From IMG/VR virus record IMGVR_UViG_3300028571_000011: a DNA stretch of 64,000 nucleotides; one strand, 5' to 3'. Every line of letters begins with the position of its first letter. Within the stretch, counting starts at the first letter, position 1. Made by a program: the position numbers and the translations under genes. The notes under the pieces are model-generated. The model was not told the DNA's origin and ran no database searches. It saw nothing but the letters and a program-made list of their open reading frames with translations. Shown here piece by piece: positions 11,976-30,432 of this stretch. This DNA is from a virus. Taxonomy: Duplodnaviria; Heunggongvirae; Uroviricota; Caudoviricetes.

Positions 11976-11984
11976 AAGGAATAC

Positions 11985-13730: not shown

Positions 13731-13735
13731 CTTCG

Positions 13736-13775
13736 CTGACAGGATCAGCTAAAACTGGTCCTGTCAGGTTTGCGT
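13736..13775 (+). terminator. hairpin after rsr (CTGACAGGA...TCCTGTCAG + GTTTGCG)
   Basis: 9-bp stem 6 nt after the stop; weak U tract. Confidence 0.4.
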
Positions 13776-13798
13776 GAAAACCGAATATGAAACACTTC

Positions 13799-13867
13799 GT
13801 GAGACGGTGCCGCCGTGCTTGTCACCAAGATTCGTCTTGGCAGACTGCTTGAATAACGGCACCGTCT
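13799..13867 (+). ncRNA. structured element: 12-bp perfect stem (GAGACGGTGCCG/CGGCACCGTCTC) with a nested hairpin
   Basis: perfect inverted repeat with an internal CCAAGA-TTCG-TCTTGG hairpin. Confidence 0.35.
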
Positions 13868-13879
13868 CCAGATTTTGGA

Positions 13880-14010
13880 GAGCCGAAGAAGAAACGTTAA
13901 CAAAACAGCATGTCCTTGGTTCGAACCCAAGCATTGTGAACGCAAGTTCCTTTGTAGCTCAGCTGGAAGAGCAGCCGTCCACAAAACACGTTTCCTCACA
14001 ACTTGTTCTC
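13880..14010 (+). ncRNA. Y RNA-like element Y5 with internal T-arm-like (CTTGG TTCGAAC CCAAG) and D-arm-like (TAGCTCAGCTGGAAGAGC) modules in permuted order
   Basis: flanks GAGCCGAAG ... CTTGTTCTC; T-arm comes before D-arm as in Y3. Confidence 0.45.
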
Positions 14011-14039
14011 CTTAGCTTTTGACGAACCGAAGATTTGTA

Positions 14040-14092
14040 GGTTATCTTTTTGGAAGGAGTGGTCGCTGGTTCGAGTCCAGCCCTCCCCACCA
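14040..14092 (+). ncRNA. orphan tRNA 3' half (T-arm GCTGG TTCGAGT CCAGC + acceptor CCTCCCC-A-CCA)
   Basis: no complementary 5' acceptor upstream; the GGGGAGG partner lies downstream of Y6. Confidence 0.45.
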
Positions 14093-14095
14093 TAC

Positions 14096-14159
14096 GAGCC
14101 GAACGCAACCGCTGGGTTACCCTTGAAATGTACCCCCCAGCATCCGCAATCCCTTGCTC
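14096..14159 (+). ncRNA. Y RNA-like element Y6 (between the permuted tRNA halves)
   Basis: GAGCCGAACGCAACCGCTGGG...CCCAGCATCCGCAATCCCTTGCTC; compensatory GCTGGG/CCCAGC stem. Confidence 0.55.
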
Positions 14160-14167
14160 GTTCCCTT

Positions 14168-14200
14168 GGGGAGGTAGCTCAGTTGGTAGAGCACTAAACG
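14168..14200 (+). ncRNA. orphan tRNA 5' half (acceptor GGGGAGG + D-arm TAGCTCAGTTGGTAGAGC)
   Basis: perfect 7/7 complement to the 3' half at 14082..14088; no downstream T-arm. Confidence 0.45.
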
Positions 14201-14235
14201 TCTACGGTCATACCTTGTTCGTCATTCTTTTCTGA

Positions 14236-14336
14236 ACGCCCTTAGCTCAGTGGTAGAGCGGCACCTCGACAAGGTGAAGGTCACTGGTTCAATCCCAGTA
14301 GGGCGGTCACTGGTTCAATCCCAGTAGGGCGTACCA
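14236..14336 (+). tRNA. tRNA-Val(GAC) carrying a 26-nt tandem duplication of the T-arm/acceptor 3' segment
   Basis: ACGCCCT...anticodon loop TCGACAA...; GTCACTGGTTCAATCCCAGTAGGGCG occurs twice; second copy ends ...AGGGCGT-A-CCA. Confidence 0.6.
14280..14331 (+). repeat. tandem duplication (2 x 26 nt) within tRNA-Val(GAC)
   Basis: exact direct repeat at 14280..14305 and 14306..14331. Confidence 0.8.
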
Positions 14337-14343
14337 GTTCGTT

Positions 14344-14415
14344 GCGCTCGTAGCTCAGCGGTAGAGCATTCGGCTCATAACCGACCGTGCGTGGGTTCAA
14401 ATCCCTCCGGGCGCC
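14344..14415 (+). tRNA. tRNA-Met(CAT) copy 2
   Basis: GCGCTCG/CGGGCGC; anticodon loop CTCATAA; T-loop TTCAAAT. Confidence 0.7.
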
Positions 14416-14437
14416 CATTTCAAGTTCTTCAGTTTGC

Positions 14438-14499
14438 GAGCCGAATACGACCGAGGGTTACTTACCATTCAAGACACCCCTCAACAGTGAAACTTGCTC
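14438..14499 (+). ncRNA. Y RNA-like element Y7, followed by a weak hairpin + T-run
   Basis: GAGCCGAATACGACCGAGGG...CCCCTCAACAGTGAAACTTGCTC; follows the tRNA directly. Confidence 0.55.
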
Positions 14500-14537
14500 G
14501 CATCTTTTCGTGCGGTTTTAACCTAGTGTAAATTCGT

Positions 14538-14611
14538 GCGGGTGTGGTATAGTGGCCGTGCCTTAGCCTTCCAAGCTAATGACACCAGTTCGAGTCTGGT
14601 CATCCGCTCCA
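14538..14611 (+). tRNA. tRNA-Gly(TCC)
   Basis: GCGGGTG/CATCCGC; anticodon stem TTAGC/GCTAA; loop CTTCCAA; CCA. Confidence 0.75.
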
Positions 14612-14846
14612 AAGATAGAGTTACAATGACAAAGTCAAACACAGACCGATACAAATGGTATCGGTCAAAGAAGAGGGTTCTGATAACCAGCTGGTTATTG
14701 GCAAATCCTTGTGTACCCACACGGGTATAGAACAAAGTACCAGCAAGGTTGCCGGTGCGGCCTCTGTAGAGAAGCCCAAAAACTTTACATGAGGAAAAGA
14801 AGAGAAGCAAAGGCTTCTGGGAATATCTAGTCAGTGTTCGTTGTAT

Positions 14847-15262
14847 GGGCTCAACCCGGTTTCGATTCGGGATGAAAAGCTAAGAAGTGCGTGTCGTGGT
14901 TGGCCGAAGGGCCACGTAAAAAATCGGTCAAAAACAATCAGCCAACGATAACATCGAAGGCGCTTCTTTCCGCATGGCTGCCTGAAAAGGTAGTCCTCGG
15001 TAAGAGGTGAGGGAACGGTTCTAGCGAACTTAGCTCCCCGTCGGGTCCAACAGAGAGCCTTCTGTAAAGGAACCCCGGCGTAAATCACTGAAGGCTAGGC
15101 GTTGATGGTGGTCGCGGCCATCAACGAGTAGAATCAAACAGCTGACCACCGAGTCTCGGACTCAACCTCATTGCCACGGTGGAGGTAAAAACTGCGGCTA
15201 CACACGTAGAGTTCTTCGTAATAGTCTTGAAGACGGGGGTTCGATTCCCCCTGAGTCCACCA
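14847..15262 (+). ncRNA. ssrA: tmRNA (SsrA); tag reading frame encodes (A)ANDNIEGASFRMAA
   Basis: 5' GGGCTCAACCCGGTTTCGATTCGGGAT tRNA-like end; 3' GACGGGGGTTCGATTCCCCCTGAGTCCACCA; tag ORF 14941..14985. Confidence 0.75.
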
Positions 15263-15466
15263 GAGCAGTTAGGCACCGCTGCAATCCACACGAAAGTGTG
15301 ATAGAGAGACCTACGATGCCCTGACAGGTGCAATGCTTGTCTGGTGGAGGTAACGATTCAGGTCGTTGCCCTGACCGTGATGGTAGTAGCGGGTTGCTTC
15401 AGGGTTATTGTCCAACCTTGGATTGACGCGGCGGGTAAAACTGCCCTACCAACCTTTCATTGCTCA

Positions 15467-15494
15467 TTGACTTCAGCGTAAGTTCTGGTATAAC
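15467..15494 (+). promoter_or_regulatory. sigma70-like promoter TTGACT-N16-TATAAC driving a near-leaderless ORF
   Basis: -10 ends 6 nt before the ATG at 15501. Confidence 0.5.
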
Positions 15495-15500
15495 TAGCAA

Positions 15501-15866
15501 ATGATCACTGCCACCATTCCTGCAGAAGCCATCCCGACCGACCGTCGGGTGTACCGTGCTCGCGGCCATGGTGCAGCAGGCATCGGCGATTACAACCGGC
15601 ACTACGCCAAGTACGTCTCAGAGCCGCTCTGGCTCAACAACTTCGACGAAGCCTTCGAGAAGCTTCGTGAGTCTCTGGCCAACTTCAGCATTGACCTGAC
15701 CAAAGAGTCCTTCAATGCAGAGATCAAGCGTGTCTTGAACTCGAAGAACCTCGATGCCTTCTGCAAGGTCGGTCGCGCTGGTTCTGGTTACAAGCTGGAG
15801 CGTCTTGGCAAGACTCGACTCTACACTTTTCTTTGTCCTCTTTTTGAGTACGATGAAGAACTGTGA
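15501..15866 (+). CDS. hypothetical protein
   Basis: ORF of 121 aa downstream of the promoter. Confidence 0.5.
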   Translation: MITATIPAEAIPTDRRVYRARGHGAAGIGDYNRHYAKYVSEPLWLNNFDEAFEKLRESLANFSIDLTKESFNAEIKRVLNSKNLDAFCKVGRAGSGYKLERLGKTRLYTFLCPLFEYDEEL

Positions 15867-15931
15867 ACATCTCATCGTCAGGCTCTGGTAGTCTGGCGCG
15901 ACCGGGCAGGCCCAGCGGTTCTGGGTTGTTT

Positions 15932-16006
15932 GCGGGTGTAGCTCAGTGGTAGAGCATCTCGTTGCCAACGAGAATGTCATGGGTTCGAATCCCATCATCC
16001 GCTCCA
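15932..16006 (+). tRNA. tRNA-Gly(GCC)
   Basis: GCGGGTG/CATCCGC; anticodon stem TCTCG/CGAGA; loop TTGCCAA; CCA. Confidence 0.85.
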
Positions 16007-16022
16007 TTTCAGATAGAAGACA

Positions 16023-16409
16023 ATGCCTCTTAAAGACCCAGTTGCGAGACGAGAGTACCAGCGAAACTACAGCAGAAATCGGCTGCATACCGACCCCATT
16101 GCAAAAGCAATGCACGCGCAACGAGTTAAGAAAAACAATAAGAAAGCAAGAGAAGCCATCCGGGCTTTGGTTGACGTCTTCAGAAAAGACGGTTGCCTGC
16201 TTTGCGGAGAAAGCGACGCGTGTTGTTTAGATGCCCACCACTTAGACCCGTCATCGAAAGATTTCAGTATAGGTGAGGCTGCGAGAAGGCTCCTTACCCT
16301 CAAAAAGGTAAGGGAGGAAATTACAAAGTGCGTCTGTGTCTGTAGAAATTGCCATGCTAAGATACATGCCGGTTCTCTAGTTATAGAAAGAAACCTTTGC
16401 GGGGTATAG
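16023..16409 (+). CDS. HNH homing endonuclease
   Basis: CLLCGE...CCLDAHHLDP...CRNCHAKIH HNH motifs. Confidence 0.75.
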   Translation: MPLKDPVARREYQRNYSRNRLHTDPIAKAMHAQRVKKNNKKAREAIRALVDVFRKDGCLLCGESDACCLDAHHLDPSSKDFSIGEAARRLLTLKKVREEITKCVCVCRNCHAKIHAGSLVIERNLCGV

Positions 16410-16471
16410 AAATGGTATCTTATGGGCCTCATAAGCCCAAGTTCTCCGTTCAAGTCGGAGTCCCGCATCCA
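16398..16471 (+). tRNA. tRNA-Met(CAT) copy 3 (initiator, elongator or tRNA-Ile2 cannot be told apart)
   Basis: TGCGGGG/TCCCGCA; anticodon stem TGGGC/GCCCA; loop CTCATAA; T-arm CTCCG TTCAAGT CGGAG; CCA. Confidence 0.65.
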
Positions 16472-16477
16472 TTCAAC

Positions 16478-16536
16478 GAGCCGAATACGACCGAGGGTTA
16501 CCTGCATAAACTACCCCTCAACTGTGAACCTTGCTC
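16478..16536 (+). ncRNA. Y RNA-like element Y8
   Basis: GAGCCGAATACGACCGAGGGTTACC...CCCCTCAACTGTGAACCTTGCTC; follows the tRNA. Confidence 0.55.
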
Positions 16537-16578
16537 GTTGTCCCTTTCTCAAATGACCAGTTTAAAGGTGAAGAAGTA

Positions 16579-16818
16579 ATGGCCACAAAGAAGGTCGCAC
16601 CAGACTTTGGCAAGTCAGTCACAGACGCCACAGCCCTCCTTCGCGCGAAGGGTTACAAAGCTGAAGCCATCGACCTCTCTGCTGCTGCAGACCTCCCACA
16701 GGAGGAACTGGTGCTTGGACTCATCGGCATCATGAACTCAATGGCAAGGCGAATCTCTGCCATCGAAGAGAATCAACTCGCAGTAGAGAGACTCGCCAGA
16801 CACGGCGGAAAGAAGTGA
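16579..16818 (+). CDS. hypothetical protein
   Basis: ATG with a GGTGAAGAAG RBS; part of ORF 16531..16818. Confidence 0.45.
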   Translation: MATKKVAPDFGKSVTDATALLRAKGYKAEAIDLSAAADLPQEELVLGLIGIMNSMARRISAIEENQLAVERLARHGGKK

Positions 16819-17237
16819 CGGTAGATTACTTCTCGAAGGCCGACTGGTCTGCGGTTAGCTCATGTGCTGGTTACCCAGCAGTCAAATGCCCTGAACACCC
16901 TAAGGCATGGTCTACAGGATGGATTCACGTGCATCGACTTGTGGCAGAGCACAAGCTGGGTCGCTTACTTACTGTAAGCGAAGTAGTTCACCATGTGAAT
17001 GGTATAAAGGATGACTACAGCTTCGACAACATTGAGGTAATGGAGGACAACAAAGCACACAGAAAGGAGCATGCTAAAAGCATGACAAGAGCCGCCGTAA
17101 TGGTTAAGTGTGCTTTTTGTTCTACTCTCTTTGAAAGAGAGAAAAGACAAACAGCCAAAGCTAAAGGTCAGAAAGCCGACTACTGCAACAGAACTTGTAG
17201 TGGAAGGGCAAACGGACCGAAAAGTAATCGGAAGTAG
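16815..17237 (+). CDS. HNH endonuclease
   Basis: HVHRLVAEHKLGR...VVHHVNGIKDD..N...H. Confidence 0.7.
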   Translation: MTVDYFSKADWSAVSSCAGYPAVKCPEHPKAWSTGWIHVHRLVAEHKLGRLLTVSEVVHHVNGIKDDYSFDNIEVMEDNKAHRKEHAKSMTRAAVMVKCAFCSTLFEREKRQTAKAKGQKADYCNRTCSGRANGPKSNRK

Positions 17238-17244
17238 ATAATGC

Positions 17245-17636
17245 GCCTCCGTATCGGCTCTGACTTCTAATCTGAGTACCGTAACTGGACTTATGCAGGT
17301 TCGAGTCCTGCCGGGGGCACCATCTACGACCACGACACTCATTGGGTGTAGAACGGCCAAATGGAACGAGTTCGACCCTCGTATAGTCCACCAGTGGGCT
17401 ATGGTAGCGGACCGAGCCGGGTTCGACTCCCGGTACATCCACCAATGTCAGTGCGCTCGTAGTTCAGCTGGACGATTAAACGCGATTGGGTCACTACGTC
17501 AACTCTTTCTGCACTCGCAGCTGCTCAGGTACACACCAGAAGACTACAGTTATCACGCGCCCGTATTCCCTCGGTTTCCTAAACCGTTGAAAGGATAGTT
17601 GGATACACACAAGTTCGAGTCTTGTCGGGCGCGCCA
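17245..17636 (+). pseudogene. cluster of about 4 degenerate tRNA-like units, each ending in a T-arm + acceptor + CCA (ends at 17322, 17393, 17444, 17636)
   Basis: canonical T-arms (GCAGG TTCGAGT CCTGC; ACGAG TTCGACC CTCGT; CCGGG TTCGACT CCCGG; ACAAG TTCGAGT CTTGT), but no canonical D/anticodon arms could be folded. Confidence 0.4.
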
Positions 17637-17771: not shown

Positions 17772-18356
17772 ATGACCGCTCAAATTCTCGTCCTCAACAA
17801 GCAATGGGCTCCCGTCGGGATCGCTGACTTGGAGCGTGCAATGGGTCTGCTCTGCACTGGAGCAGCCAAGGCGTTGGACAAGGAACATCAGATGTACGAC
17901 TTCGCGTCGTGGTCTGAACTCCGTGCTGAGTATGGGGACGCCACCGTCTCGACGCCCAACAGGGTGATCAAGATTCCTACCATCTTGGTGCTTCAGGTCT
18001 ACGACCGTCTGCCGCACATGCGAGTTCGTTTCTCGCGCAATGCTGTCTACCTGCGTGACAACTTCACGTGTCAGTACTGCGCCAAGAAGTTCCCTCGTCA
18101 GTCACTGAACCTTGACCATGTCGAGCCTCGTTCTCGTGGCGGTCGCACCAGCTGGACCAACATCGTTTGTGCCTGCTACCCGTGCAACACCAAGAAGGGA
18201 GACAAGACGCCTGCTGAAGCCGGTATGCCTCTGCTCAAGAAGCCCGCCAAGCCTCGTGTCAGTGGTCTGAATCTCGGTCGTGCAACGCCAGCTGAGTGGC
18301 TGCCGTTCATCGACCCAGTGTCAGCTGCATACTGGAATTCGGAACTCGAAGAGTGA
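17772..18356 (+). CDS. HNH endonuclease (McrA-like)
   Basis: CQYC...LNLDHVEPRSRGG..N..CACYPCNTKK. Confidence 0.7.
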   Translation: MTAQILVLNKQWAPVGIADLERAMGLLCTGAAKALDKEHQMYDFASWSELRAEYGDATVSTPNRVIKIPTILVLQVYDRLPHMRVRFSRNAVYLRDNFTCQYCAKKFPRQSLNLDHVEPRSRGGRTSWTNIVCACYPCNTKKGDKTPAEAGMPLLKKPAKPRVSGLNLGRATPAEWLPFIDPVSAAYWNSELEE

Positions 18357-18469: not shown

Positions 18470-18483
18470 AGGAGTGAAAAGAA

Positions 18484-18514
18484 AGAGAGCCCCAACCGGG
18501 GCTCTCTTTCTTTA
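18484..18514. terminator. bidirectional rho-independent terminator (AGAGAGCCCC-AACC-GGGGCTCTCT, T-runs on both sides)
   Basis: perfect 10-bp stem; AAAAGAAA upstream and TTTCTTT downstream; separates + and - gene blocks. Confidence 0.75.
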
Positions 18515-18528: not shown

Positions 18529-19089
18529 TCAGGCGTACACGAGCGTTAGCAACGAGGTTGCTCCGTTGTCGCCAACGACCTTCAGGAGTGCGGTCTCAGC
18601 GATGTCGTCAGCAATCGAAACCACGAAACCACCAGTTGCGTTGGTGGTCAACCAGCAGCGGGTGAAGTTGGTTGCGCCAGACGCAATGTTGAGCTTCTGC
18701 GTACCGGTGGACACGGTGACGGCACCCTTGCCAACGGTGGGGGTGATGACTTCGAGGTAGATCTCGGCAGCAGCCTCAACCGCAGCACCCGAGCCATTGA
18801 CAACCTGACCGGTGACAACGCGGGCGTTGGCGCCTTCAGCGGCAGCAGCCAGCGTGATGTCGCGAATCGAGGCCATGGGCATCGACTCGATGGTGTCAGG
18901 CACGCTGGGGTCGGCAGCGACGGTCAACGCAATGGCACGAGCCGTCACAGCCGCCAGAAGAGCAGGGTCCTGAGCCTGAGCATCGGTGAGGCTCAGGGTC
19001 ACAGAACGACCAGCGCGAAGCACACGAGAGACTGGAGCAGGAACAGCGAAGCTGCCCGAGGTGATGTTCTGAACGGTAACTAGGGGCAT
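18529..19089 (-). CDS. paralog C of a 3-member family with a shared N-terminal domain (MPLVTVQN.TS.SFAVP.PV.RVLRAG.S), beta-rich C-terminus
   Basis: 186 aa; N-terminal ~70 aa conserved with 19551..20627 and 21245..22135. Confidence 0.6.
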   Translation of the reverse strand: MPLVTVQNITSGSFAVPAPVSRVLRAGRSVTLSLTDAQAQDPALLAAVTARAIALTVAADPSVPDTIESMPMASIRDITLAAAAEGANARVVTGQVVNGSGAAVEAAAEIYLEVITPTVGKGAVTVSTGTQKLNIASGATNFTRCWLTTNATGGFVVSIADDIAETALLKVVGDNGATSLLTLVYA

Positions 19090-19119
19090 GACTACCTCCG
19101 AAGATGGGACGCTGACGGC

Positions 19120-19554
19120 TTACTCTCCAGTATGGTCGGTCTCGCTTGTTTTTTTGCTATCAATGCAGTCAAGAACCTTCTCAACGAGGTAGGGATCCCA
19201 ACCACATTCTTCTTCGTGCACTGGGCAAGTGTAGGAGTAGTCCTCAGCAATCATCTGCTTCCAGTGAGCCTGTTCATGGGCAATGGAGTTCCCAACTGGG
19301 ACTCGGTTGTGTGATGCCATTCGTCCGGGTGCGAGTGCTGAGCCGACGCCAAGTGTGCAGGAGTCAACATCTCGAAGACACATTCTGGTTGTGTCCTCAA
19401 CGCAGTACACAGTCATCCTGTTCACGACGTCTACCAGTTCAGGAGTCACCTGAACTGCACACGCCATGGCCAGCTTGATGTCATCCTTGTTGCAGTTGGG
19501 ATGCTTAGAGCAAGCAGATACCAACACTATAGCAATGACAGTAGCAAGCCTCAT
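19120..19554 (-). CDS. putative lipoprotein (signal MRLATVIAIVLVSAC)
   Basis: lipobox LVSAC; start overlaps the upstream stop (ATGA) on the minus strand. Confidence 0.55.
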   Translation of the reverse strand: MRLATVIAIVLVSACSKHPNCNKDDIKLAMACAVQVTPELVDVVNRMTVYCVEDTTRMCLRDVDSCTLGVGSALAPGRMASHNRVPVGNSIAHEQAHWKQMIAEDYSYTCPVHEEECGWDPYLVEKVLDCIDSKKTSETDHTGE

Positions 19555-20627
19555 GGCAGGAAGAACTTCCGAGCAGCCTGCTTCATATCAGTGACGGTGA
19601 TGATTGTTCCGTGCACAACGAACTTGACGGCTGCAATGAGACCAGTGGTAGTTGCGTCCCCGCCTGCCATGCCATCAACAGAGAACCCAGTGTTCGCCAC
19701 TGTTGACGTGATGGGAATGTTACCAGCAGCTGCGGCAGCAGTGACACTGTTCTGCAGTGCCACTGTATTGTTTGCTCCATCAAATACCTGATTAGCATAC
19801 ACAGAAAGCGTTGCAGATGCTGCCGCAACGGACGCTGCCAGTGCGGTGGCTACCTCTGCACTGGTGTCCAAGCTTGTGATGATGACACGTCGCGTTGTTC
19901 CAGTTTCAACAACTGACGCATTCTTGTCGAAGACAAAATCAACAGCGGGGTGAACGCTATCCTGAATGGTAATCTTTTCACCCTGACTGATAAGGCTACC
20001 AGCAACACAAGTGACGAGACCTACGGCGGGGATAACTACTTCTGTCCCTAGGTACTGACCTGACCCATTGACCGTGATCCCACCTCCTCCGTAAACAACA
20101 GTGGCAGAGATGTCTGCACCATTAATAGATGATTCTACAGTCGTAGTGCTCTCTGTCGCATTGCCGTCATTGTCCACTGAGATGACACCTCTGTACCTCA
20201 TGTAGGACGTGTCCGAGTCCGGATACTCGTTAATGAGCCCGGCCCTAGGTACTATGTTAAGATGCCCGGTCACTGTCAGGTCAACGATTGCCTGCGTATT
20301 GGGTTTCACAACCCTTTCGAAGATTACCTTCGTGTAGTCGAAGTCATTGATACCAGTACCGGGCACAAGAGACTCGATCTCTTCTGCTGGGATTGATGAC
20401 ACCACAAAGATGTCTTCTTTGGTCACACCGTCTTCAGTTGTAGAAAAATCGACAACATGTACCAGCGATATCAAACCAGAAGCCTCAGCACGCCTCAGGC
20501 TGGCATCTCCAAGCTGAGCCTCCGTCAACTCGACTTCACAAGAACCACCGGCACGAAGAACTCGTGCAACTGGAGGAGGTACAGCGAAGCTGGATGCTGT
20601 GAGGTTTTGGACTCGGATGAGTGACAT
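19551..20627 (-). CDS. paralog B of the shared-N-terminus family; Gly/Thr/Ala/Val-rich fibrous-looking C-terminus
   Basis: ORF 19551..20804; conserved MSLIRVQNLTASSFAVPPPVARVLRAG begins at the ATG at 20627. Confidence 0.55.
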   Translation of the reverse strand: MSLIRVQNLTASSFAVPPPVARVLRAGGSCEVELTEAQLGDASLRRAEASGLISLVHVVDFSTTEDGVTKEDIFVVSSIPAEEIESLVPGTGINDFDYTKVIFERVVKPNTQAIVDLTVTGHLNIVPRAGLINEYPDSDTSYMRYRGVISVDNDGNATESTTTVESSINGADISATVVYGGGGITVNGSGQYLGTEVVIPAVGLVTCVAGSLISQGEKITIQDSVHPAVDFVFDKNASVVETGTTRRVIITSLDTSAEVATALAASVAAASATLSVYANQVFDGANNTVALQNSVTAAAAAGNIPITSTVANTGFSVDGMAGGDATTTGLIAAVKFVVHGTIITVTDMKQAARKFFLP

Positions 20628-20641
20628 GGTGAACTCCGTGA

Positions 20642-21223
20642 CTACACAGTCAGTATGCCAACCGTGTTGTACGACCCGTAGGCGGACTCCACTTCCTGAG
20701 GCAAAGTACCGAGTGCTTTGAGAGGTATCAGCCTCGACGGGCAAAGTGTGTGCACAGCACTGTGCGGCCACCTCCCATACCTTCTGGCTCCTTCCCATGC
20801 CCACAGGTAGGCGTTCGCTTTCCTGATATAGTCAGGAAAGTCTAGGTCGACTTTGAACAGCTTGCACAGCTTGATGGCATGCTTCTCAGCATCGTGCTCA
20901 CAGCGCTGGATGTAGTTGATTGCGTTGTTGAGGATCTTCGTGTTGACGGCCTTGTTGTTCTCCAACCAACCATCAGCAATGGCCCAAGCATTACCGTCTG
21001 AGAATCGTCCATCGATCAGCTGCTCAACATGGCCAAGCTCATGAGCCAAGACACCACACCAGTCTGACCGGCCAATGGCAACTATCATTCGACGACTTTG
21101 CTCATCAAACTGACCAATGTTTCCATCGCCAGTCTCTGTAGTCGGAGTGAGTACAAGCTCACCACTGACAACAGCCAGCCGATCCATGGCATAGGTTACG
21201 AGTCGACTCTCAGCTGGTGTCAT
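20642..21223 (-). CDS. putative Zn metallopeptidase (HELGH motif, ImmA/IrrE-like)
   Basis: VLAHELGHVEQL HExxH motif; 193 aa. Confidence 0.5.
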   Translation of the reverse strand: MTPAESRLVTYAMDRLAVVSGELVLTPTTETGDGNIGQFDEQSRRMIVAIGRSDWCGVLAHELGHVEQLIDGRFSDGNAWAIADGWLENNKAVNTKILNNAINYIQRCEHDAEKHAIKLCKLFKVDLDFPDYIRKANAYLWAWEGARRYGRWPHSAVHTLCPSRLIPLKALGTLPQEVESAYGSYNTVGILTV

Positions 21224-21244
21224 GGTCGCCTTCGTTTCCGGACG

Positions 21245-22135
21245 TTATACTCGGTTGATCACCTTGGTCATTGAGATGTAGTCGATAAACAGATTCCTCT
21301 GAAGAGTGCCTGCGGTCTTGATGATTTGCCAGTACGGACCGAACCTGACCGTGGCTTCATCCTTAACGACGTCAGATAGGTCAACATCCCATACTGGTAC
21401 ATCGTCGAATAGGATTGTGCATCTATTGCCATCCTTATCGATGGCAAACCTGATTCGAATCCAAGCACCAGCAACAACTGGGATGGTTGTTATCTGTTGA
21501 ATGGTCGAGCCGCCGAAGGCGCGCTCAGCAACCCAGAACGAAGGTGAGATGCTTGTATCTAGCAGAAGGCCAACCCCGATGGTCGGTGCTCCGTTTGCAG
21601 CGGTCTGATTCCCCATACCAAGCTTGACTGTGAAGTTTTCATCAACAGTCGGTAGTGTGGTGGAGAGCCTCGTACGCATCTCCGTTGAGAGGGCACCGAA
21701 ACCCAATGAGACCGACGCCATCCCCTGCCTGTAGAGGGCAGCAGAGGCATTGGTGGTGACTGCCATACCGATGACACCAGCTGCACCAGCGAGCACCGTG
21801 CTTGCGGTGACTGCTGCTACCACTGCACCACCAAGGCCAGCTGCTGTCCAGTTAGATTGACCCGGAAAGGAATCACAGAGGAAGTCGTCCTCAAGCCTGA
21901 CCACATTCGTCAGTGAATCGAAGGTGGGGACCTCTAGTACGTCAGGCACGCCGGGGTCTGCAGCTACAGTCACCGAGATGATACCCTTCATCACTGCATC
22001 CGCGAATGCGTTGCTCTCCAGCTGAGAATACGTCAAACTCATCTGAATGGACCTCTTAGGTCCAAGGATCCGGTCAACTGGGCTTGGAACAGTTACCTTC
22101 GACGAGAGCAAGTTTTGGATTGTAACTAGTGGCAT
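21245..22135 (-). CDS. paralog A of the shared-N-terminus family
   Basis: MPLVTIQNLLSSKVTVPSPVDRILGPKRS conserved with paralogs B and C; 296 aa. Confidence 0.6.
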   Translation of the reverse strand: MPLVTIQNLLSSKVTVPSPVDRILGPKRSIQMSLTYSQLESNAFADAVMKGIISVTVAADPGVPDVLEVPTFDSLTNVVRLEDDFLCDSFPGQSNWTAAGLGGAVVAAVTASTVLAGAAGVIGMAVTTNASAALYRQGMASVSLGFGALSTEMRTRLSTTLPTVDENFTVKLGMGNQTAANGAPTIGVGLLLDTSISPSFWVAERAFGGSTIQQITTIPVVAGAWIRIRFAIDKDGNRCTILFDDVPVWDVDLSDVVKDEATVRFGPYWQIIKTAGTLQRNLFIDYISMTKVINRV

Positions 22136-23044
22136 TCAAGACTCCTCAGATTGACGCTTCGACTCATCCATCTCAACCAGCATCGGGTCTTTGCGCTTTC
22201 TCAGCTCAGCAATAATGTCCTTAGCAGTCGAGACAACTTTAGCGTATACTGGATACAGGCGAGCAGAGAGCTTCTTCTGGTTCTCTGGAGAAAGAACGTG
22301 CCAGAATTTGTAGTGACCTCTCCAATTACTGAGGAAGTTTTTGAATGACTGATCCTTAAGGTCCAGTAATTTCCAAACAGCCCAGTCATGCTTGTCAGAG
22401 CCAGCTTTATCTGGGCCTGTATCATGCTCGATGTCCGCGACGGTCTTGTCGAACTCGATCTTGTCTAGGTACTCGACAACGGCCTGATGGAAGTAAGCAT
22501 TAGTTTCGATGGGGTGATTGACGTAGGTCTTGATACCCTTCTCTTTCTTCTCATCATTTGTCGGGTAAGACTTGATGGCATCTTCCATACTGAATCGTTC
22601 GCTATCTAGGTAGTGAACAAGCTCATGGATGAATGAAGAGCGGACAGCTTTGTCCTTAAGAACGTCGAGAGCCTTCAGCTTAACATTGTATGTTTGCTCA
22701 AATATAGAGCTTACATCCGCCACCACGATGGATGTATCCTTGGGACGGAAGAAGGTTTCCTCACCCTCGTGAGCAACCAGAGTCAGCTTCTTCAGGACAG
22801 GGTCGTCGGTCAGTTTCATCAACGGTAGGCGAGCACCTTGGTCCACGGTCACCTGAACGTACTGTGCAACACCTGACTTCAATATGCGCTGAATCTCGTT
22901 GTAGAGCCTGACGGCCTCGCGGCGGAACTCTTCATCCTTCGCCCGAGCTTCAAGCTCAGCGGCGGCTGTGAGCAACGTGTGAGCCACGTGGATGTAGTCC
23001 AGACTGTCCATGGTACAGGATGCACCAAAAAGAGAAGCGGCCAC
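22136..23044 (-). CDS. hypothetical protein with a HExxH motif (IHELVHYLD), possible metallopeptidase
   Basis: 302 aa; GTG start with an AGGAGA RBS; alternative ATG at 23011. Confidence 0.45.
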   Translation of the reverse strand: MAASLFGASCTMDSLDYIHVAHTLLTAAAELEARAKDEEFRREAVRLYNEIQRILKSGVAQYVQVTVDQGARLPLMKLTDDPVLKKLTLVAHEGEETFFRPKDTSIVVADVSSIFEQTYNVKLKALDVLKDKAVRSSFIHELVHYLDSERFSMEDAIKSYPTNDEKKEKGIKTYVNHPIETNAYFHQAVVEYLDKIEFDKTVADIEHDTGPDKAGSDKHDWAVWKLLDLKDQSFKNFLSNWRGHYKFWHVLSPENQKKLSARLYPVYAKVVSTAKDIIAELRKRKDPMLVEMDESKRQSEES

Positions 23045-23085
23045 TAGGACCGCTTCTCCTCAACCACTTTTCAGTGAAAGCCAGA

Positions 23086-25473
23086 TCAAATCGTGACCTT
23101 CGCTTCCTTCATGTCGACCTTGCAGGAGAAAGACTGACCACCAAAGGTCAGGTCGAGGCTGTTGTCGTCGAGGCTGGGGAACTCTTTGAACCATGAGTTG
23201 CCAACTACGACAGCGAACAAGCTCTGCGCCTTCTGGAAGATCAAGTCACGGACCTTGTTCTTCTGTGCGGTAGCTTCCTTCTCAAGGATGACCAGAGCTT
23301 CCTCATCGGTCTTGCCGCTGATGAGGTTGTCCGTCTTCGTGACGAAGGGAGCCATGATACCAACACTGGCCGTCAGTGCCTTGCCTGCAGCCATCTTGGT
23401 CTTGACGTCCTTCAGCGTTGGGAGCGCCGACAAGCCCGACAGAGACACAGCCATCTCCTTGGACATGTAGAAGTCCGTGGCCTCGGCCTGAACAGACTTG
23501 GGAGCGAAGCCGCTGTACTCCGTGAAGCCAGCCGCCTTCAACCAAGCAGCACCGTCGTCACCATAGAGACTGGCGAAGCCCTCGCTCTTCTTGCCCTCAG
23601 GCTTCTTCTCCTTGATGTAGGAGTTGAAGACCTTCTGTGCCGCCTTCGCCTTCGTCAGGTCGTACTCAGCAGTGAACAACTCCTTTGCCGAGTTGCTCTT
23701 GACCATCAGAGCGTTGATGACAGGAAGCTTGCTCATGTTGATGAGCACTTCGTCAGGCTGGAATTTGCCAGCGACGAGCTTGCCCTTCGCAGTGAACACG
23801 CCAGCTTCAAGCTTGCCTTCCTTGACGAGGCTGGTCAGCTTGTCGATCGTTGCAGCCGACAGGATGGTTGGCAGCACTTCGACGTTGACGAGACCATCCT
23901 TCACAACTGCATAGTTGCGGAAGATGAAGGTATCCATCTCGGAAGGCACTGCTGCAGGCTTGTCCTTCCTGTCCGACAAGTCGACCTTGCCTTCTTTGCG
24001 GACAAGAATGGACACGTTGGGGCGCTCTTCATTGTACGTCAGGTTTGCTACAGGGTAACCAGCTGCAGCCTTGGCGGTGTCTTCGACGAAGGCCAAAGCT
24101 CCGGGCTTGTTGGCGATGGCGTCAATCTGAGCAGTGATCTTCTTGACCTCAGCAAGGTCACGAAGGCCAGCGAGCTTCTCGGTCAGAAGCTCAATCTGGT
24201 CCTGTTCATCGGACGTCAGGATCGTGTTGCTGTCGACACGGCTGCGGCCAATCTTGTTGTACTGGAACGCCTCGTGGTTCAGCAGCACACGGTTGTCGTC
24301 ATCCGAAGCCAGAAGCTTCAACATGTCAAGCACAGTGAACGCGTCGTCAGCAGGCACACGGCTGGAGTCCCAACCCTTGGCCCAACGACCCTGACCGAAG
24401 GCAGCCTTCTTCGTCGAGTCCATGAACTCGGAGTACGCCTGCTTGCCGAAGCAGTTTGTGAACTGCTCAATCATCGCAACGTCACCAGATGCCTTGAGCA
24501 GCGGCCTGACAATCTCAGGCTTCATACGCGTCACGAACAACGACGTAGCTGCGTAGACGGCAGCTACAAGCTCGTTGTTGAGCACGTGGCCACCGTTGGC
24601 AGCGGTACGAGTGCAGAACTCAGCGTAGCTCGCTTCACCATCCGCCAGCACCTCAAGACCAACCTTCGCTGGCGTGAGGAACCAAATGGTACCCGTGTCC
24701 TCTGGGACAGAGATCTTGCCCGCATCGATGGCGAATGTATTGATGCTTCCGTTGTCAACGGTGAACGCGATGCCACCGATGAAGTCAGCATTGGGGAGCT
24801 TCACTTCGAGCTTCTTCGACCCCATCGGACGACGAGCAAGAGCAGCCTCGATGTTCGCAGCATAGGACTGGAAGTCTTTGGAGTGAACAACGGAACCACC
24901 AGCCTTCTCAGCCATCTTCGTCAGAAGAGGACGGTTGGCGTAGTAGCCGTACTCGACGAAGACGACGCTGGAGACCACAGCACCGGCCTTGGCCGAAGCA
25001 GCGAGGATGTCAGCCTCGGACCAGCAGTTGTCACCACCGTCTGTCATGAACGCCAGATTCATTGCCATGTTGGCGTTGGCCTTCGACAAACGACCAACGA
25101 TGTTGGCAACTTCGTCAAGGGGCTCTTTGAAAGCCGTCATGCCGACAGGCCGCAACCAACGGTCGATCTTCTCGTTGACGGTCTTGAGGTCGGCGAGGGT
25201 TCCGATCTTCTCACCTTCCATCAAGGTACCGAACTGAGTGCGGCCAGAGAACCACACGATGGTGACTGTGTCGTTCTCCTTCACAGAGGACTTGAGCTTG
25301 CTCTTCAGGTGCTCACGTACCTTGACTAGCTCACCGGACATTGAACCAGAGACGTCAACCACCAAGATGTGGTTGCAGTCCTTCTCGGTCTGCACAATGG
25401 TGGCAGACACTCCTTTGTCGATTGTGTGGTTCGCGATGTATAGGTTGTTGTTGATTTTGTACGAGGTATTCAC
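23086..25473 (-). CDS. large vWA-domain protein (N-terminal von Willebrand A domain, ~550-aa C-terminal region of unknown function)
   Basis: MIDAS DVSGSMSG and FMTDGGDN; GTG start at 25473 with an AGGAGA RBS (ORF 23086..25683). Confidence 0.65.
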   Translation of the reverse strand: MNTSYKINNNLYIANHTIDKGVSATIVQTEKDCNHILVVDVSGSMSGELVKVREHLKSKLKSSVKENDTVTIVWFSGRTQFGTLMEGEKIGTLADLKTVNEKIDRWLRPVGMTAFKEPLDEVANIVGRLSKANANMAMNLAFMTDGGDNCWSEADILAASAKAGAVVSSVVFVEYGYYANRPLLTKMAEKAGGSVVHSKDFQSYAANIEAALARRPMGSKKLEVKLPNADFIGGIAFTVDNGSINTFAIDAGKISVPEDTGTIWFLTPAKVGLEVLADGEASYAEFCTRTAANGGHVLNNELVAAVYAATSLFVTRMKPEIVRPLLKASGDVAMIEQFTNCFGKQAYSEFMDSTKKAAFGQGRWAKGWDSSRVPADDAFTVLDMLKLLASDDDNRVLLNHEAFQYNKIGRSRVDSNTILTSDEQDQIELLTEKLAGLRDLAEVKKITAQIDAIANKPGALAFVEDTAKAAAGYPVANLTYNEERPNVSILVRKEGKVDLSDRKDKPAAVPSEMDTFIFRNYAVVKDGLVNVEVLPTILSAATIDKLTSLVKEGKLEAGVFTAKGKLVAGKFQPDEVLINMSKLPVINALMVKSNSAKELFTAEYDLTKAKAAQKVFNSYIKEKKPEGKKSEGFASLYGDDGAAWLKAAGFTEYSGFAPKSVQAEATDFYMSKEMAVSLSGLSALPTLKDVKTKMAAGKALTASVGIMAPFVTKTDNLISGKTDEEALVILEKEATAQKNKVRDLIFQKAQSLFAVVVGNSWFKEFPSLDDNSLDLTFGGQSFSCKVDMKEAKVTI

Positions 25474-25555
25474 GTTATCTCCTAGGTGCCGTTTTTGGCA
25501 TTCAGAGAATAACACAGCACGTTGCCGTCTGCCACCGTTGATTGCACCCTGAGCT

Positions 25556-27004
25556 ATGACCACCATCCGAGCCAATGCTAAGAAGCGTATTGATTTCTCT
25601 CTGCCGAAGATGGTGCAGAATGAAGACGCCTTCCTATGGATTGTGATTAACGCCTTGGGTCTTGAGCGCATTTGTAATTTCAATCTTGGTAGCTCTACAT
25701 GGACGCTAAAGGCGGGGGGTCAGGACAAAGCCGTCACGGTCGATAATCTCCTTGAAGGTCTTAAGAACGAGCTATCGGCCAACTCGATTATTGACCCATA
25801 CATCCCTTGGCTTGCAACCAGACTCAACAAAGGTAGTTACCTACCGAGGCTGCTGTTCGGTGACCTCGCAAGAAAGTTCAGGTCCATCTGCATTTGGGCT
25901 AAGGAAACCAAGACTGACTTGAACAAGCTGAGCTTGGAAGAGACTCTAGAGCAGTCGAAGGATTACACCACCAATGCAGCCCGTAAGGGCAAGGAAGACT
26001 CTGACGCCAATCCAGTGGTGTACACCTTTGCCAATGGTCATAAGGTAGTTGAACTCAAGACGGAAGAAGCCCTCAAACGTGAGGGCGATGTCATGAAGCA
26101 CTGCGTGGGCAACTACTGTGATGCAGTAAAAGTAGGTGAGTCAGTCATCTACTCACTAAGAACTCCTGATAACAAACCACTGGTCACGATAGAATACAAC
26201 ACTGAGGACGAAGCAATCAAGCAGGTATTTGGTCCTGCAAATGCAGACCCGGTACCTGAAGCAAAAGTTCTGACGTTGGAGTTTCTGAAGAAGAAGTTTC
26301 CAAAGGATATCGAGTTCATCTTTAAGATGGGTGGCACCGTTGGTGACACCGACATCGATGTGTCTAATGTGGAATCCTTGCCGAGAAAGACGAGGCAGGC
26401 ACTCGCGAGGTCGCGCCAGACACCGGCTCCGTTGCTGGAGAAACTGGCTAGCGACCAAGACATTGTAGTGAGGCTACGCGTAGCCTCCAACAGTGGGGCA
26501 CCACCTGCATTGCTTGAGAAGCTGTCTCTCAGCGACGACTACGACGCGGACACGAGAGAAGCAGTAGCAGACAACACAAGCTGCCCTGTGCCTGTGCTTG
26601 AAAGACTAGCGAAAGACCCGGACTACGAAGTCAGAAGAGCAGTCGCCAGAAACCACACCACGCCTGACTCCATTTTGGAAGACTTGACCGACGACGAGCA
26701 TAAGCTCGTGCGAGTCACGATTGCAAGGAACAACGCCAAGGCTCTTCCAGATTCTATACTGGAGAAGTTAGCGCGAGACGACAACTCATTTGTCCGTATC
26801 GGTGTAGCCGAGAGGCGTGGAACACCGAAGCATATCTTGACTATGCTGGAACAAGATACCGACACGATGGTCAGCTTCGCCGCCGACCGTGGCCTGCAGC
26901 GAATCTCCGACAACGAGAGTGAGAAGCTGACCGCCTCTCACCGGATGGAGATTGCATTGTCACTGCGGGCTGCAGCGAATGCCCTCAGTGCAGCCAAGCG
27001 GTGA
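25556..27004 (+). CDS. protein with an N-terminal HCVGNYC domain and C-terminal leucine-rich-repeat-variant (LRV/HEAT-like) repeats
   Basis: MKHCVGNYCDAVKVGESVIYSLRTPDNKPLV shared with 38354..40645; repeats ..LLEKLA.D.D..VR..VA.N. Confidence 0.6.
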   Translation: MTTIRANAKKRIDFSLPKMVQNEDAFLWIVINALGLERICNFNLGSSTWTLKAGGQDKAVTVDNLLEGLKNELSANSIIDPYIPWLATRLNKGSYLPRLLFGDLARKFRSICIWAKETKTDLNKLSLEETLEQSKDYTTNAARKGKEDSDANPVVYTFANGHKVVELKTEEALKREGDVMKHCVGNYCDAVKVGESVIYSLRTPDNKPLVTIEYNTEDEAIKQVFGPANADPVPEAKVLTLEFLKKKFPKDIEFIFKMGGTVGDTDIDVSNVESLPRKTRQALARSRQTPAPLLEKLASDQDIVVRLRVASNSGAPPALLEKLSLSDDYDADTREAVADNTSCPVPVLERLAKDPDYEVRRAVARNHTTPDSILEDLTDDEHKLVRVTIARNNAKALPDSILEKLARDDNSFVRIGVAERRGTPKHILTMLEQDTDTMVSFAADRGLQRISDNESEKLTASHRMEIALSLRAAANALSAAKR

Positions 27005-27727: not shown

Positions 27728-28486
27728 ATGAAGCCGAACATGCGCTCCGACAACCGATATACAAAAGAGATTCTTGAAGAATCAGTGAAGAGAAATGAGA
27801 CATGGGCAGGTGTCATTCGTGACCTGAAAGGAACCGGCAGCCACGGCGGTGGTCTACATGCGCATCTGAGGGGCAGAGCGGAGGCTATGGGTATTGACTA
27901 TAGTCACTTCAAGGGGCGTAGCTGGAGTAGGGGGACACCAAGTCCAAAGCGGGTCGGAGCAGAGGATATTCTTAAAAGGCAGCATGGCGAGCGCTTGAAG
28001 CCTCCCGCTACACACTACCTGAGAAAATCCTTACTGGAGATTGGTGTACCACATCGATGTTCACTTGAAGGCTGTCCAGTGGGAACAACGTGGAACAGTA
28101 AAGAGTTGGTGTTGCAGGTCGATCACATCAACGGTGATAAGTTTGATTGTCGGGCAGAAAATCTGCGGTTCATTTGCCCAAACTGCCACTCTCAAACCTC
28201 GAACTGGGGTATAAAGAATAGCAAAGGCTACAACATCGAACCGACTATCTGCCAAGGGTGCAGCCGAGAAACGAAAGAAAGAGGGTCGACACGATGTGCG
28301 TCGTGTGCTCAGAAGGAGGCCAGCAAGACAAGAGCAGCAAATCAAGAACGAATTAGCTGGCCTTCAATCGAACAGTTACAGAGTATGATGACTACCATGT
28401 CGATGGTGGCGATTTCAAAGCAACTCGGCTGTTCAGACAACGCTGTCAGGAAGTTTATGAAGAAGAAAGGCGCATGGGTAAAGTAA
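27728..28486 (+). CDS. HNH endonuclease
   Basis: LQVDHINGDKFDCRAENLRFICPNCHSQ. Confidence 0.65.
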   Translation: MKPNMRSDNRYTKEILEESVKRNETWAGVIRDLKGTGSHGGGLHAHLRGRAEAMGIDYSHFKGRSWSRGTPSPKRVGAEDILKRQHGERLKPPATHYLRKSLLEIGVPHRCSLEGCPVGTTWNSKELVLQVDHINGDKFDCRAENLRFICPNCHSQTSNWGIKNSKGYNIEPTICQGCSRETKERGSTRCASCAQKEASKTRAANQERISWPSIEQLQSMMTTMSMVAISKQLGCSDNAVRKFMKKKGAWVK

Positions 28487-28762: not shown

Positions 28763-30130
28763 ATGGGAGCTTCTCGCTTTTGTGATGGCACTCTTACGGG
28801 CGAGGTCACAATGTCATCAAGACCAACAGTATCAGCCATCGATGGGAACGCACTTAAAGAATGGTGCGAATCCGAAGCAAGCTACTCTGTCCTGAATGAA
28901 ACAGAGTCAGCTGACGGAACGTGGATGGCAGGTGGCTGCTCCGTACTTGCTTTGGCCCTCAAGAAGCTGGTGCCAGCGGGCGACGTAGTAGGTATCAACA
29001 ACCAGAACGGTGACACGCAGCACGTCGGCCTCCAGATCGGTGGCGATGTCTTCGATGCTGAGGGTGCACATAGCATCCAATCATGGCTGACAGATTGGCT
29101 TGACTACGAGATGCTTGATCCGTCAGGTCATGAGGTTGTCCTCTGGAAAGACATTACCCTACCGGGTCCCGCCTCAAAAGCTGATGTGAGCTTGGTTGCT
29201 GACGCATTGAGAACAACCTTATCGTCATCAACAGTATCAGCTATGTCACAGAAGCACTTTGAAACTCCAGCGTTCAAGGCATGGTTCCGCAATTCCAAAG
29301 TAGTTGACGAGAAAGGGAAACCGCTCGTTGTGTTTCATGGAACCAACGATGGTGGCTTCACCATCTTCGACAAGCGGCAGATCAAGAAGGGGGAGTACGG
29401 CTTCTTCTTCACCGACGACGACCGCATGGCCTCCACATACAGCAAGTCCAGTGAAGACGCTCTCCCAGAGGACTACACCTCAGTTGAGGAGTTCATTGAG
29501 GAGGATGGTAAGAATGGTAGCTCTTACGATGTTGGTGTGAAGTACTACGCCGTCGCCGACAAGGAGGAGCAGGAAGGTAGTCATGACCACATCAGCTACT
29601 ACAAGTCGATCTATGACCTGAAGGATGACTGGGACATTGACCCCAACAACGAGGAGTTGGACACTGGCAAGGTCTACCTGCTTCAGACCCACGGCAAGAC
29701 TGTCGGCACATTCGACAGCGCCAACAAAGAGGACATGGGCAAGCTACTGGAGTTGCTGAACAAGGACCTGCGCAAGCGGCCTCTGAAGACGGAGGGCGGC
29801 ATGTACAGCGTGTACCTCCGAATGGAGAACCCCTACGAGGTGGACGCCGAGAACTCATCTTGGGATGAGATTCAGCTGATGGAAGAAGATGAAGACGGTA
29901 ACAAGGTTCGAGGGCCTTACGTGTCAACACGAGACATCGTCCGTGAAGCTCTGGACATGGATTGCGATGGTGCCATCATCCGCAACGTCTACGACAATGG
30001 CCCCCATGGGTCTGGGGGCCATCTAGCTGACGTGTATGTCGTGTTCGATGCGAAGCAGATCAAGTCCGTCAGGAACAAGGGATCCTACGACGACAAGCAC
30101 GAAGACATCCGGGCGTCACAACGTCAGTGA
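28763..30130 (+). CDS. hypothetical protein (455 aa; start uncertain, possible ATG at 28811)
   Basis: long ORF directly after tRNA-Cys. Confidence 0.5.
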   Translation: MGASRFCDGTLTGEVTMSSRPTVSAIDGNALKEWCESEASYSVLNETESADGTWMAGGCSVLALALKKLVPAGDVVGINNQNGDTQHVGLQIGGDVFDAEGAHSIQSWLTDWLDYEMLDPSGHEVVLWKDITLPGPASKADVSLVADALRTTLSSSTVSAMSQKHFETPAFKAWFRNSKVVDEKGKPLVVFHGTNDGGFTIFDKRQIKKGEYGFFFTDDDRMASTYSKSSEDALPEDYTSVEEFIEEDGKNGSSYDVGVKYYAVADKEEQEGSHDHISYYKSIYDLKDDWDIDPNNEELDTGKVYLLQTHGKTVGTFDSANKEDMGKLLELLNKDLRKRPLKTEGGMYSVYLRMENPYEVDAENSSWDEIQLMEEDEDGNKVRGPYVSTRDIVREALDMDCDGAIIRNVYDNGPHGSGGHLADVYVVFDAKQIKSVRNKGSYDDKHEDIRASQRQ

Positions 30131-30432
30131 AACCCGACGCGAAGCTCCCAACCACTGGGGAGGTCGATGATGTCGACTTCGTTGCATCCGAAGGCAGTAC
30201 AGCTCTCGGCCCAGAACGGGCAGCGGTAGTCTGGTGGGAAGATGGCAATCCACTCCATGTCATCCTGTGATGACAAGCTCCACGACTTCATGCAGGCAGG
30301 CACCTTCGAGGAGTGCCATACAGTAGCAGACTCAATCGAGTAGCCACCATTGCGGATGAACTCGTCCACTGCCTTCAACGCGTATTGCCGAAGCTCGGCT
30401 TCATGTGTCTCATCAGTTCCATCAGTCACAGC
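30124..30432 (-). CDS. hypothetical Cys-containing small protein (start uncertain)
   Basis: C-terminal part MKSWSL...CPFWAESCTAFGC with an AAGGTG RBS before the ATG at 30290. Confidence 0.3.
   Translation of the reverse strand, partial: AVTDGTDETHEAELRQYALKAVDEFIRNGGYSIESATVWHSSKVPACMKSWSLSSQDDMEWIAIFPPDYRCPFWAESCTAFGCNEVDIIDLPSGWELRVGFH

Follow-up and report, generated by a model that had tools for sequence, protein, structure and literature searches.

The stretch of DNA analyzed here, referred to as the window, comprises 64,000 nucleotides of the virus record IMGVR_UViG_3300028571_000011 (IMG/VR; Caudoviricetes) and holds a block of seven minus-strand genes at 18529-25473, which we number p1 to p7 by coordinate. 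A preliminary description made from the letters alone had outlined this block, and all seven open reading frames (ORFs) are present and agree with the genes called independently on two public contigs of identical sequence (L006 and L007). In the order of transcription, they encode a von Willebrand factor A (vWA) protein, p7, followed by a strict alternation of HExxH proteins (p6, p4, and p2) and three paralogs (p5, p3, and p1) that share an N-terminal domain, hereafter the N-domain. The first paralog, p1 (186 residues, 18529-19089), consists of the N-domain at residues 1 to ~66 (nucleotides 18892-19089) and a beta-rich C-terminal domain of ~115 residues; p3 (358 residues, 19551-20627, with its ATG at 20627) joins the N-domain (20430-20627) to a variable C terminus of ~290 residues; and p5 (296 residues, 21245-22135) joins it (21938-22135) to a C terminus of a separate class, named after p5. 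The HExxH proteins are p2 (144 residues, 19120-19554), which is rich in cysteine and carries the lipobox LVSAC and HEQAH at residue 93; p4 (193 residues, 20642-21223), with the zincin motif HELGHxxQ and HELGH at residue 61; and p6 (302 residues, 22136-23044), with the zincin motif HELVHxxDxxR, HELVH at residue 140, and a downstream Y..P.E.NA...AV.E. The vWA protein p7 (795 residues, 23086-25473) contains a complete metal ion-dependent adhesion site (MIDAS), after which come a beta-sandwich and ~500 C-terminal residues. The sizes first given for p1, p4, p5, and p6 are right, whereas those of p3 and p7 had each been set one residue too high, at 359 and 796.

The intergenic gaps within the block measure between -4 and 41 nt, in keeping with a single operon. 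The start of p2 overlaps the stop of p3 by 4 nt, and this frame overlap suggests translational coupling of the two genes. The operon is closed at 18479-18512 by the terminator already noted in the preliminary description, a strong hairpin with a perfect 15-bp stem (-31.2 kcal/mol; z = -6.06 against shuffled sequences); because runs of A and T flank the stem, it could act in both directions. At the opposite end, a divergent intergenic region (25474..25555) lies between p7 and a PcfJ-like gene and is presumed to be the promoter region. No sigma-70-type consensus was found within it, a result that is uninformative for a phage using its own promoters. Across the six frames of the window, HExxH occurs in only four ORFs of at least 100 residues, three of which are p2, p4, and p6, and the joint chance expectation for three such genes in the block is ~1e-6.

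The N-terminal similarity of p1, p3, and p5 is far beyond chance, with pairwise BLAST E values of 1e-17 (p1 and p5), 2e-13 (p1 and p3), and 1e-8 (p3 and p5) and identities of 43-44% over ~65-79 residues. The N-domain spans ~65 residues, reads M[PA]L.T..N...S.f.VPpPV.r.L, and ends in DP..PD..E. When the N-domain alignment was run as a hidden Markov model (HMM) in an exhaustive search through 1.84 billion protein representatives, it returned 45 matches, four of which are repeat-protein artefacts and 41 of which are other clusters of the family. The domain lies at residues 1 to ~75 in all 41, in proteins of 120-624 residues, and the family HMM finds exactly three copies in the window, with p1 scoring 99 bits. 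When p5 was modeled by AlphaFold2 (AF2) from a 42-sequence alignment, residues 1-60 were predicted with a pLDDT (predicted local distance difference test) of 94-98, as four short strands, two helices, and one strand.

The N-domain has no match in Pfam, PHROGs, the PDB, or BFVD. Likewise, p1 to p6 gave nothing significant against Pfam, PHROGs, NCBIfam, and PADLOC, and sequence and profile searches of the PDB with p3, p5, the p1 class, and the p3 class gave nothing. A tblastn search of isolated phages with the N-domain consensus, p5, and the p3 C terminus was also empty. Metagenome scans for the N-domain yielded one short contig only, which was already in the set, and scans of IMG/VR were empty; word-indexed searches with short N-domain alignments gave zero matches even though the source contig is in the collection, which we take as a limitation of short profiles. 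No copy turned up in 185,579 genomes of bacteria and archaea, a weak negative since the scan used a single short peptide pattern. The family has been seen in phage-like contigs only. A sub-threshold match of p1 to Pfam bpX6, a domain of the MoxR-vWA-beta-propeller system (E 0.003, below the cut-off), was dropped when only one of the 42 family members was found to share it. On these comparisons, the N-domain appears to be a previously undescribed domain family, and both the family itself and its restriction to uncultivated large phages are new.

Several N-domain paralogs also lie close together in other phages, as two of them (521 and 189 residues) do on contig L014 and as P0144 and P0127 do on one 3.4-kb contig. 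At 537-2579 and 2711-6264 of L014, the surroundings of these paralogs include, next to them, a 680-residue protein with a Tad6 domain (type I Thoeris inhibitor; 3e-34) and a weak ART-PolyVal-like region, as well as a giant DarB-like helicase/methylase protein encoded close by. The unrelated contigs L012 (351-1765) and L019 (10948-12036) have a pair of small genes in common beside their N-domain genes, one of ~245 residues (phrog_17686) and one of 83-100 residues (GxYGFxWW), their likeness being judged by eye from N-terminal sequences only.

Beyond the N-domain, the paralogs diverge into modules that are themselves shared among phages, in agreement with the conserved N-module and variable C termini of the preliminary description. 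Clustering of the segments past residue 70 by BLAST gave seven recurrent C-terminal classes; p1, p3, and p5 fall into three different ones, each of which recurs in other phages. The p1 class is also found in P0126, P0130, P0142, and P0154, the p3 class has the conserved core G.ITC..G..I.QGE..TI.D.....V.F.FD...SVVET, and the C terminus of p5 is homologous to that of P0150, which matches Pfam SO2946-like_C (2e-20). Elsewhere in the family, P0132 has tail-fiber repeats of the GFMSASDKxKL type together with PHROG matches to tail-protein and tail-fiber families, and a DUF4376 gene follows it. P0144 has head-decoration, tail-fiber, and virion-structural PHROG matches (1e-13 to 1e-21), and its residues ~70-199, outside the N-domain, align with gp074 of cyanophage PSS2 (7e-16), whose annotation is virion structural protein and whose gene lies between fiber genes and the tape-measure gene. 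PSS2 gp074 was considered as a carrier of the N-domain and rejected, as the HMM does not match it and the homology begins only past the N-domain. When the 42 family members were scanned with Pfam, none had a toxin, nuclease, deaminase, or peptidase domain in its C terminus.

The cassette shuffling for which a comparison with relatives had been suggested is visible in L010, a close relative whose HNH gene, p4, and p1 are 99%, 97%, and 94% identical to those of the window. The p5 gene is exactly absent from L010, where the stop of p6 joins the p5-p4 spacer, and both p6 and p4 are retained without it. Whereas the flanking genes are 94-99% identical, p3 and p2 share only 47% and 60% identity, and the conserved tract ends ~55 codons into p3, i.e. 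after the N-domain. The synonymous divergence (dS) between the window and L010 is saturated for p3 and p2 and is 0.16-0.24 for p4 and p1, which indicates that the p3-p2 segment was replaced as one unit by a divergent allele. Cassettes involved in host interaction are expected to show such a pattern, which also ties p2 to p3. The ratios of nonsynonymous to synonymous divergence (dN/dS), 0.13 for p1 and 0.09 for p4, show purifying selection on both genes.

The p2 protein had been listed simply as a lipoprotein. Its window copy reads MRLATVIAIVLVSAC and carries a canonical lipobox ([LVI][ASTVI][GAS]C); its HEQAH motif had been overlooked. The L010 orthologue has a hydrophobic N terminus in which IASVSC departs from the lipobox consensus, and it keeps HEQAH as well as every cysteine of the aligned mature region. 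The lipobox and the conserved cysteines together predict an exported, disulfide-rich protein.

Modular tailspikes and fibers that combine an N-terminal virion anchor with exchangeable C termini include P22/Sf6-type tailspikes, TSP1-4 of Ackermannviridae, and T7 gp17. Like p1, p3, and p5, such receptor-binding proteins have a conserved N-module with unrelated C-modules, occur as several paralogs per genome, have a breakpoint just past the N-module, and are gained or lost as whole genes between near-identical phages. The principle of joining a constant anchor to a variable distal domain and of exchanging such cassettes is well known. However, the N-domain matches no known anchor in Pfam, PHROGs, the PDB, or BFVD; many family members have 170-200 residues, a size that suits decorations or knobs more than long fibers; and the genes of p1, p3, and p5, whose virion attachment is putative, lie outside any recognizable structural module. 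A second likeness concerns the p3-p2 pair. In phage T5, the gene of the small lipoprotein Llp sits next to that of the receptor-binding protein pb5, on its downstream side, and Llp blocks the receptor (PMC9586334). As in T5 pb5-Llp and in Cor of the T1/phi80 type, p2, the gene of a small predicted lipoprotein, stands immediately downstream of a putative binding protein, and we count the exchange of p3 and p2 as one unit between relatives as part of this likeness. In contrast to Llp and Cor, p2 has a conserved HExxH and many conserved cysteines, no sequence relationship was detected, and the canonical lipobox is present in the window copy but not in the L010 orthologue. Also new are the predicted HExxH lipoprotein that is exchanged along with p3 and the way in which zincin-motif genes alternate with the paralogs three times over.

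The reading that we favor, with the scales roughly level between its being right and wrong, is that p1, p3, and p5 are interchangeable fiber, knob, or decoration proteins of the virion that dock through a common N-terminal anchor, that p2 is the exported cognate accessory of p3, and that p4, p6, and p7 are unrelated to them. The N-domain of ~65 residues would dock all three paralogs to one shared site on the virion, and the variable C terminus would be displayed outward as a fiber, knob, or decoration and bind host surface structures, this phage carrying three N-domain proteins with three different distal domains. Through gain or loss of p5 and replacement of p3 alleles, the locus would tune adsorption or host range. 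The p2 protein, forming one recombination unit with p3, is most likely its cognate accessory, and it could be either a superinfection-exclusion factor comparable to T5 Llp, masking or modifying the receptor, or a factor for maturation in the periplasm. Virion attachment, receptor binding, and the role of p2 are what we infer; the modularity, turnover, and motifs described above are observed.

Several observations weigh against this reading. While the prediction of p5 is confident for the N-domain, its C terminus shows no confident fold in the full-length AF2 model. The C termini of p1, p3, and p5 match no fiber, decoration, or other family in Pfam, PHROGs, NCBIfam, the PDB, or isolated phages; the resemblance to receptor-binding proteins or tail fibers raised in the preliminary description thus holds for fiber modules in other members, known fiber or decoration homology being confined to P0132, P0144, and P0150, and does not extend to a named fiber family for the three window proteins. 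These genes are set among tRNA, transfer-messenger RNA (tmRNA), Ro60, RNA-repair, HNH, and PcfJ genes and not in a structural module. Other members likewise have an accessory or counter-defense setting (Tad6, ART-PolyVal-like, and DarB-like helicase genes on L014) or lie among small unknown genes (L017). A structural-type neighbor was seen elsewhere in one weak case, a head-tail connector-like gene 2 kb from the p3-class gene P0164 on L019. Regarding p2, no match to exclusion-protein families was found, and Llp and Cor proteins are not known to contain HExxH.

The vWA protein has a distribution of its own. In its MIDAS (DVSGS, residues 40-44, as first described), D40, S42, T113, and D145 are invariant and S44 is nearly so among 117 homologues, and the domain has a Rossmann-like vWA fold. 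Its sequence is divergent, remaining below the Pfam gathering scores of VWA_3 (25.8 bits, cut-off 27) and VWA_2 (22.5 bits, cut-off 27), and vWA membership therefore rests on motif and fold. The protein matches phrog_2426 over its full length (E = 9.8e-166; residues 26-795 against profile positions 11-736 of 736). Homologues with ~33% identity occur in 504 deposited phages, mostly Ackermannviridae, and others in hundreds of metagenomic contigs of up to 484 kb; p7 is a core protein of many large phages. It resembles the putative vWA-containing protein of this family in Ackermannviridae (Kuttervirus bering gp58) in its full-length match, invariant MIDAS, and size, whereas the identity to members from cultured phages is only ~33% and the neighbors in Kuttervirus are unrelated, being PcfJ-like here. 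The nearest homologues on informative contigs (L002-L005) are 62% identical; p1 to p6 are absent there, and the next gene after that for the vWA protein is a PcfJ-like one of ~700 residues. In the window, the PcfJ-like gene p8 (482 residues, 25556-27004, plus strand; Pfam PcfJ 4e-12), which also encodes LRV/HEAT repeats (LRV 5e-19), is positioned upstream of the vWA gene in divergent orientation, and it is one of two PcfJ-like genes in the window, the other being at 38354-40645 on the plus strand. The conserved partner of the vWA gene is the PcfJ-like gene rather than the paralogs. In the virion proteome of a Vi01-like phage, a VWA domain-containing protein had a count of 1, compared with 196-311 for abundant virion proteins (PMC10892097), which argues against a structural role. 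We picture p7 as a core vWA/MIDAS scaffold protein of its phage clade, whose gene usually has a PcfJ-like companion.

The HExxH motif is kept among the homologues of all three zincin-motif proteins, as HEQAH in p2 (L010), as HELGH, HESSH, or HEFSH in four sequences of the p4 family, and as HELVH, HEIIH, or HELIH in the p6 family. In small alignments, E109, D111, and E113 downstream of the p4 motif and E180 downstream of the p6 motif are invariant, the Glu residues among them being candidates for the third zinc ligand (Glu or His on a downstream helix), and p6 has an Asp three residues past HExxH. Peptidase activity is predicted from these motifs. The p4 family includes homologues in the huge phage LR756502 and in the Xanthomonas jumbo phage Xoo-sp13 (gp272), while the p6 family includes two paralogs with conserved motifs in the huge phage LR756508. 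An HMM scan of the p4 and p6 loci in LR756502 and LR756508 found no N-domain gene nearby; the Xoo-sp13 locus was viewed through its annotation only. Neither family matches a Pfam family at the cut-off, the sub-threshold matches being DUF6782 (E 0.07) and Peptidase_M76 (E 0.004-0.05), the latter around HExxH in three of three p6-family members, and PDB profile searches with both families gave nothing relevant. A relationship between the p4 and p6 families was rejected at an hhalign probability of 0.3%. The likeness of p4 to ImmA/IrrE proposed in the preliminary description found no support, as no Peptidase_M78 match was obtained with Pfam at E <= 0.1. On the LR756508 contig (L022, LR756508.1, 7674-13428), a p6-like HExxH protein followed by a protein of ~280 residues occurs twice in tandem, and the array ends with a 783-residue protein that has a DNA-methyltransferase-like DPPY motif, which is another alternating arrangement of zincin-motif genes. 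We take p4 and p6 to be zincin-motif proteins of the cytoplasm, from two small and mutually unrelated families of huge phages; both, as well as p7, probably have their functions elsewhere, either in host takeover or in protein processing.

The block is therefore composed of three evolutionary layers and is not one system, because vWA relatives of 62% identity lack p1 to p6 and six other N-domain loci (L008, L014, L017, L018, L019, and L020) have no HExxH gene within 3-5 kb of their N-domain genes. The adjacency of p4, p6, and p7 to the paralogs is specific to the window lineage, and the single functional island of seven genes that was first envisaged does not stand.

The window comes from a large uncultivated phage and contains 28 tRNA genes (ARAGORN) and a tmRNA. 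Megablast of the island against 50,697 deposited phage records found no nucleotide-level relative; public metagenome contigs carry identical sequence, the longest being 162,949 bp. The tRNA/tmRNA array occupies 8258-17319 on the plus strand, with the tmRNA at 14847-15262, and two weak tRNA-like elements on the same strand (8258-8330, 33.4 bits, and 17245-17319, 31.9 bits) are seen by Rfam only and are unreported by ARAGORN. Within the array lies a plus-strand Ro60 orthologue (11913-13730) with TROVE and Ro60-type vWA domains (Pfam, 4e-38 and 6e-55), which is kept in L010; no Y RNA scored at or above the Rfam gathering threshold in the window. Two plus-strand HNH endonuclease genes identified by Pfam (17772-18356 and 27728-28486) flank the island region. 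Further along the plus strand are an ART-PolyVal ADP-ribosyltransferase protein (28763-30130, Pfam) and an RNA ligase (58840-60135), which together with the HNH genes fit an accessory or conflict-gene hotspot. Although the island had been called the only sizeable minus-strand block, it is the largest one; a second, smaller block of four minus-strand genes lies at approximately 30124-31865, one of them with the Pfam domains Phage_P22_Y8K6 and YAcAr.

Among the other explanations, one that we consider unlikely but that keeps a modest chance is fortuitous adjacency, in which homing-type HNH genes and tRNA arrays mark a hotspot that has collected unrelated morons, the paralogs are non-structural, for instance proteins that bind inside the cell or at the host envelope, and the genes do not depend on each other. 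The two HNH genes at 17772-18356 and 27728-28486, the separability of the vWA gene from p1 to p6, the occurrence of the p4 and p6 families elsewhere without N-domain genes, the gene-sized p5 indel, and the non-structural surroundings of N-domain genes in other phages are all consistent with it. Against it stand the co-replacement of p3 and p2 with their 4-nt frame overlap, the tight packing of seven genes on one strand with one terminator, three HExxH genes against a chance expectation of ~1e-6, and the fiber-type modules in several family members.

A smaller chance is given to the possibility that the N-domain is a packaging or delivery tag and that p1, p3, and p5 are particle-borne early effectors, set free into the host or onto its surface, which the zincins process or activate, as in a disaggregated polyvalent protein. 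Polyvalent proteins are single polypeptides with 2-15 domains, including MPTase-PolyVal, in which zincin domains are interspersed between others (Iyer et al. 2017, PMC5512222), and an Asp three residues past HExxH, as in p6, has been described for their widespread phage-type metallopeptidase clade (PMC5512222). The window zincins share with them this Asp in p6, the HExxH helix with a conserved downstream Glu, and the interspersion with other modules; the strict alternation of HExxH and N-domain genes, with three of the four HExxH ORFs of the window in the block, and the conflict-type neighbors (ART-PolyVal at 28763-30130, the two PcfJ-like genes, and Tad6 and the DarB-like helicase on L014) point the same way. 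They differ in being stand-alone ORFs (144-358 residues across p1 to p6) rather than parts of one polypeptide, in p4 and p6 being mutually unrelated, and in giving no match to the Pfam MPTase-PolyVal model in the block at E <= 0.1. In addition, the six other N-domain loci have no HExxH gene within 3-5 kb, L010 keeps p6 and p4 without p5, and the recognizable C-terminal modules of the family are of fiber or adhesin types, not enzymes or toxins.

It is very improbable that the genes form a polymorphic toxin/immunity-like or superinfection-exclusion set in which the N-domain serves trafficking, the C termini are toxic or blocking, and the downstream gene supplies immunity or a partner. The conserved N terminus, variable C terminus, and small downstream gene (p4 after p5 and p2 after p3) as well as the co-replacement of p3 and p2 have the expected form, whereas no partner gene follows p1, the genes that follow p5 and p3 have a catalytic-looking HExxH unlike typical immunity proteins, and the family is seen only in phage-like contigs, the bacterial and archaeal scan with its one short peptide pattern being empty. 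With no toxin, nuclease, deaminase, or peptidase domain recognized in any C terminus and no PADLOC match, the effector or immunity-like set entertained in the preliminary description gained no positive support. Equally slim is the chance that each HExxH protein is a dedicated maturation or loading factor of the adjacent N-domain protein in a new protease-assisted system that installs or releases interchangeable surface or effector modules, with cleavage at or near the conserved DPxxPDxxE boundary, p2 acting in the periplasm, and the vWA MIDAS perhaps capturing the same acidic motif.

Most genes of uncultivated large phages are unannotated, and their fiber genes are scattered. If the N-domain is a virion anchor, it would provide a new and easily recognized handle for host-range determinants in these phages. 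The locus represents a natural cassette exchange between near-identical phages, comprising one gene-sized indel and one allele replacement together with a cognate exported protein, and such an exchange could guide host-range engineering.

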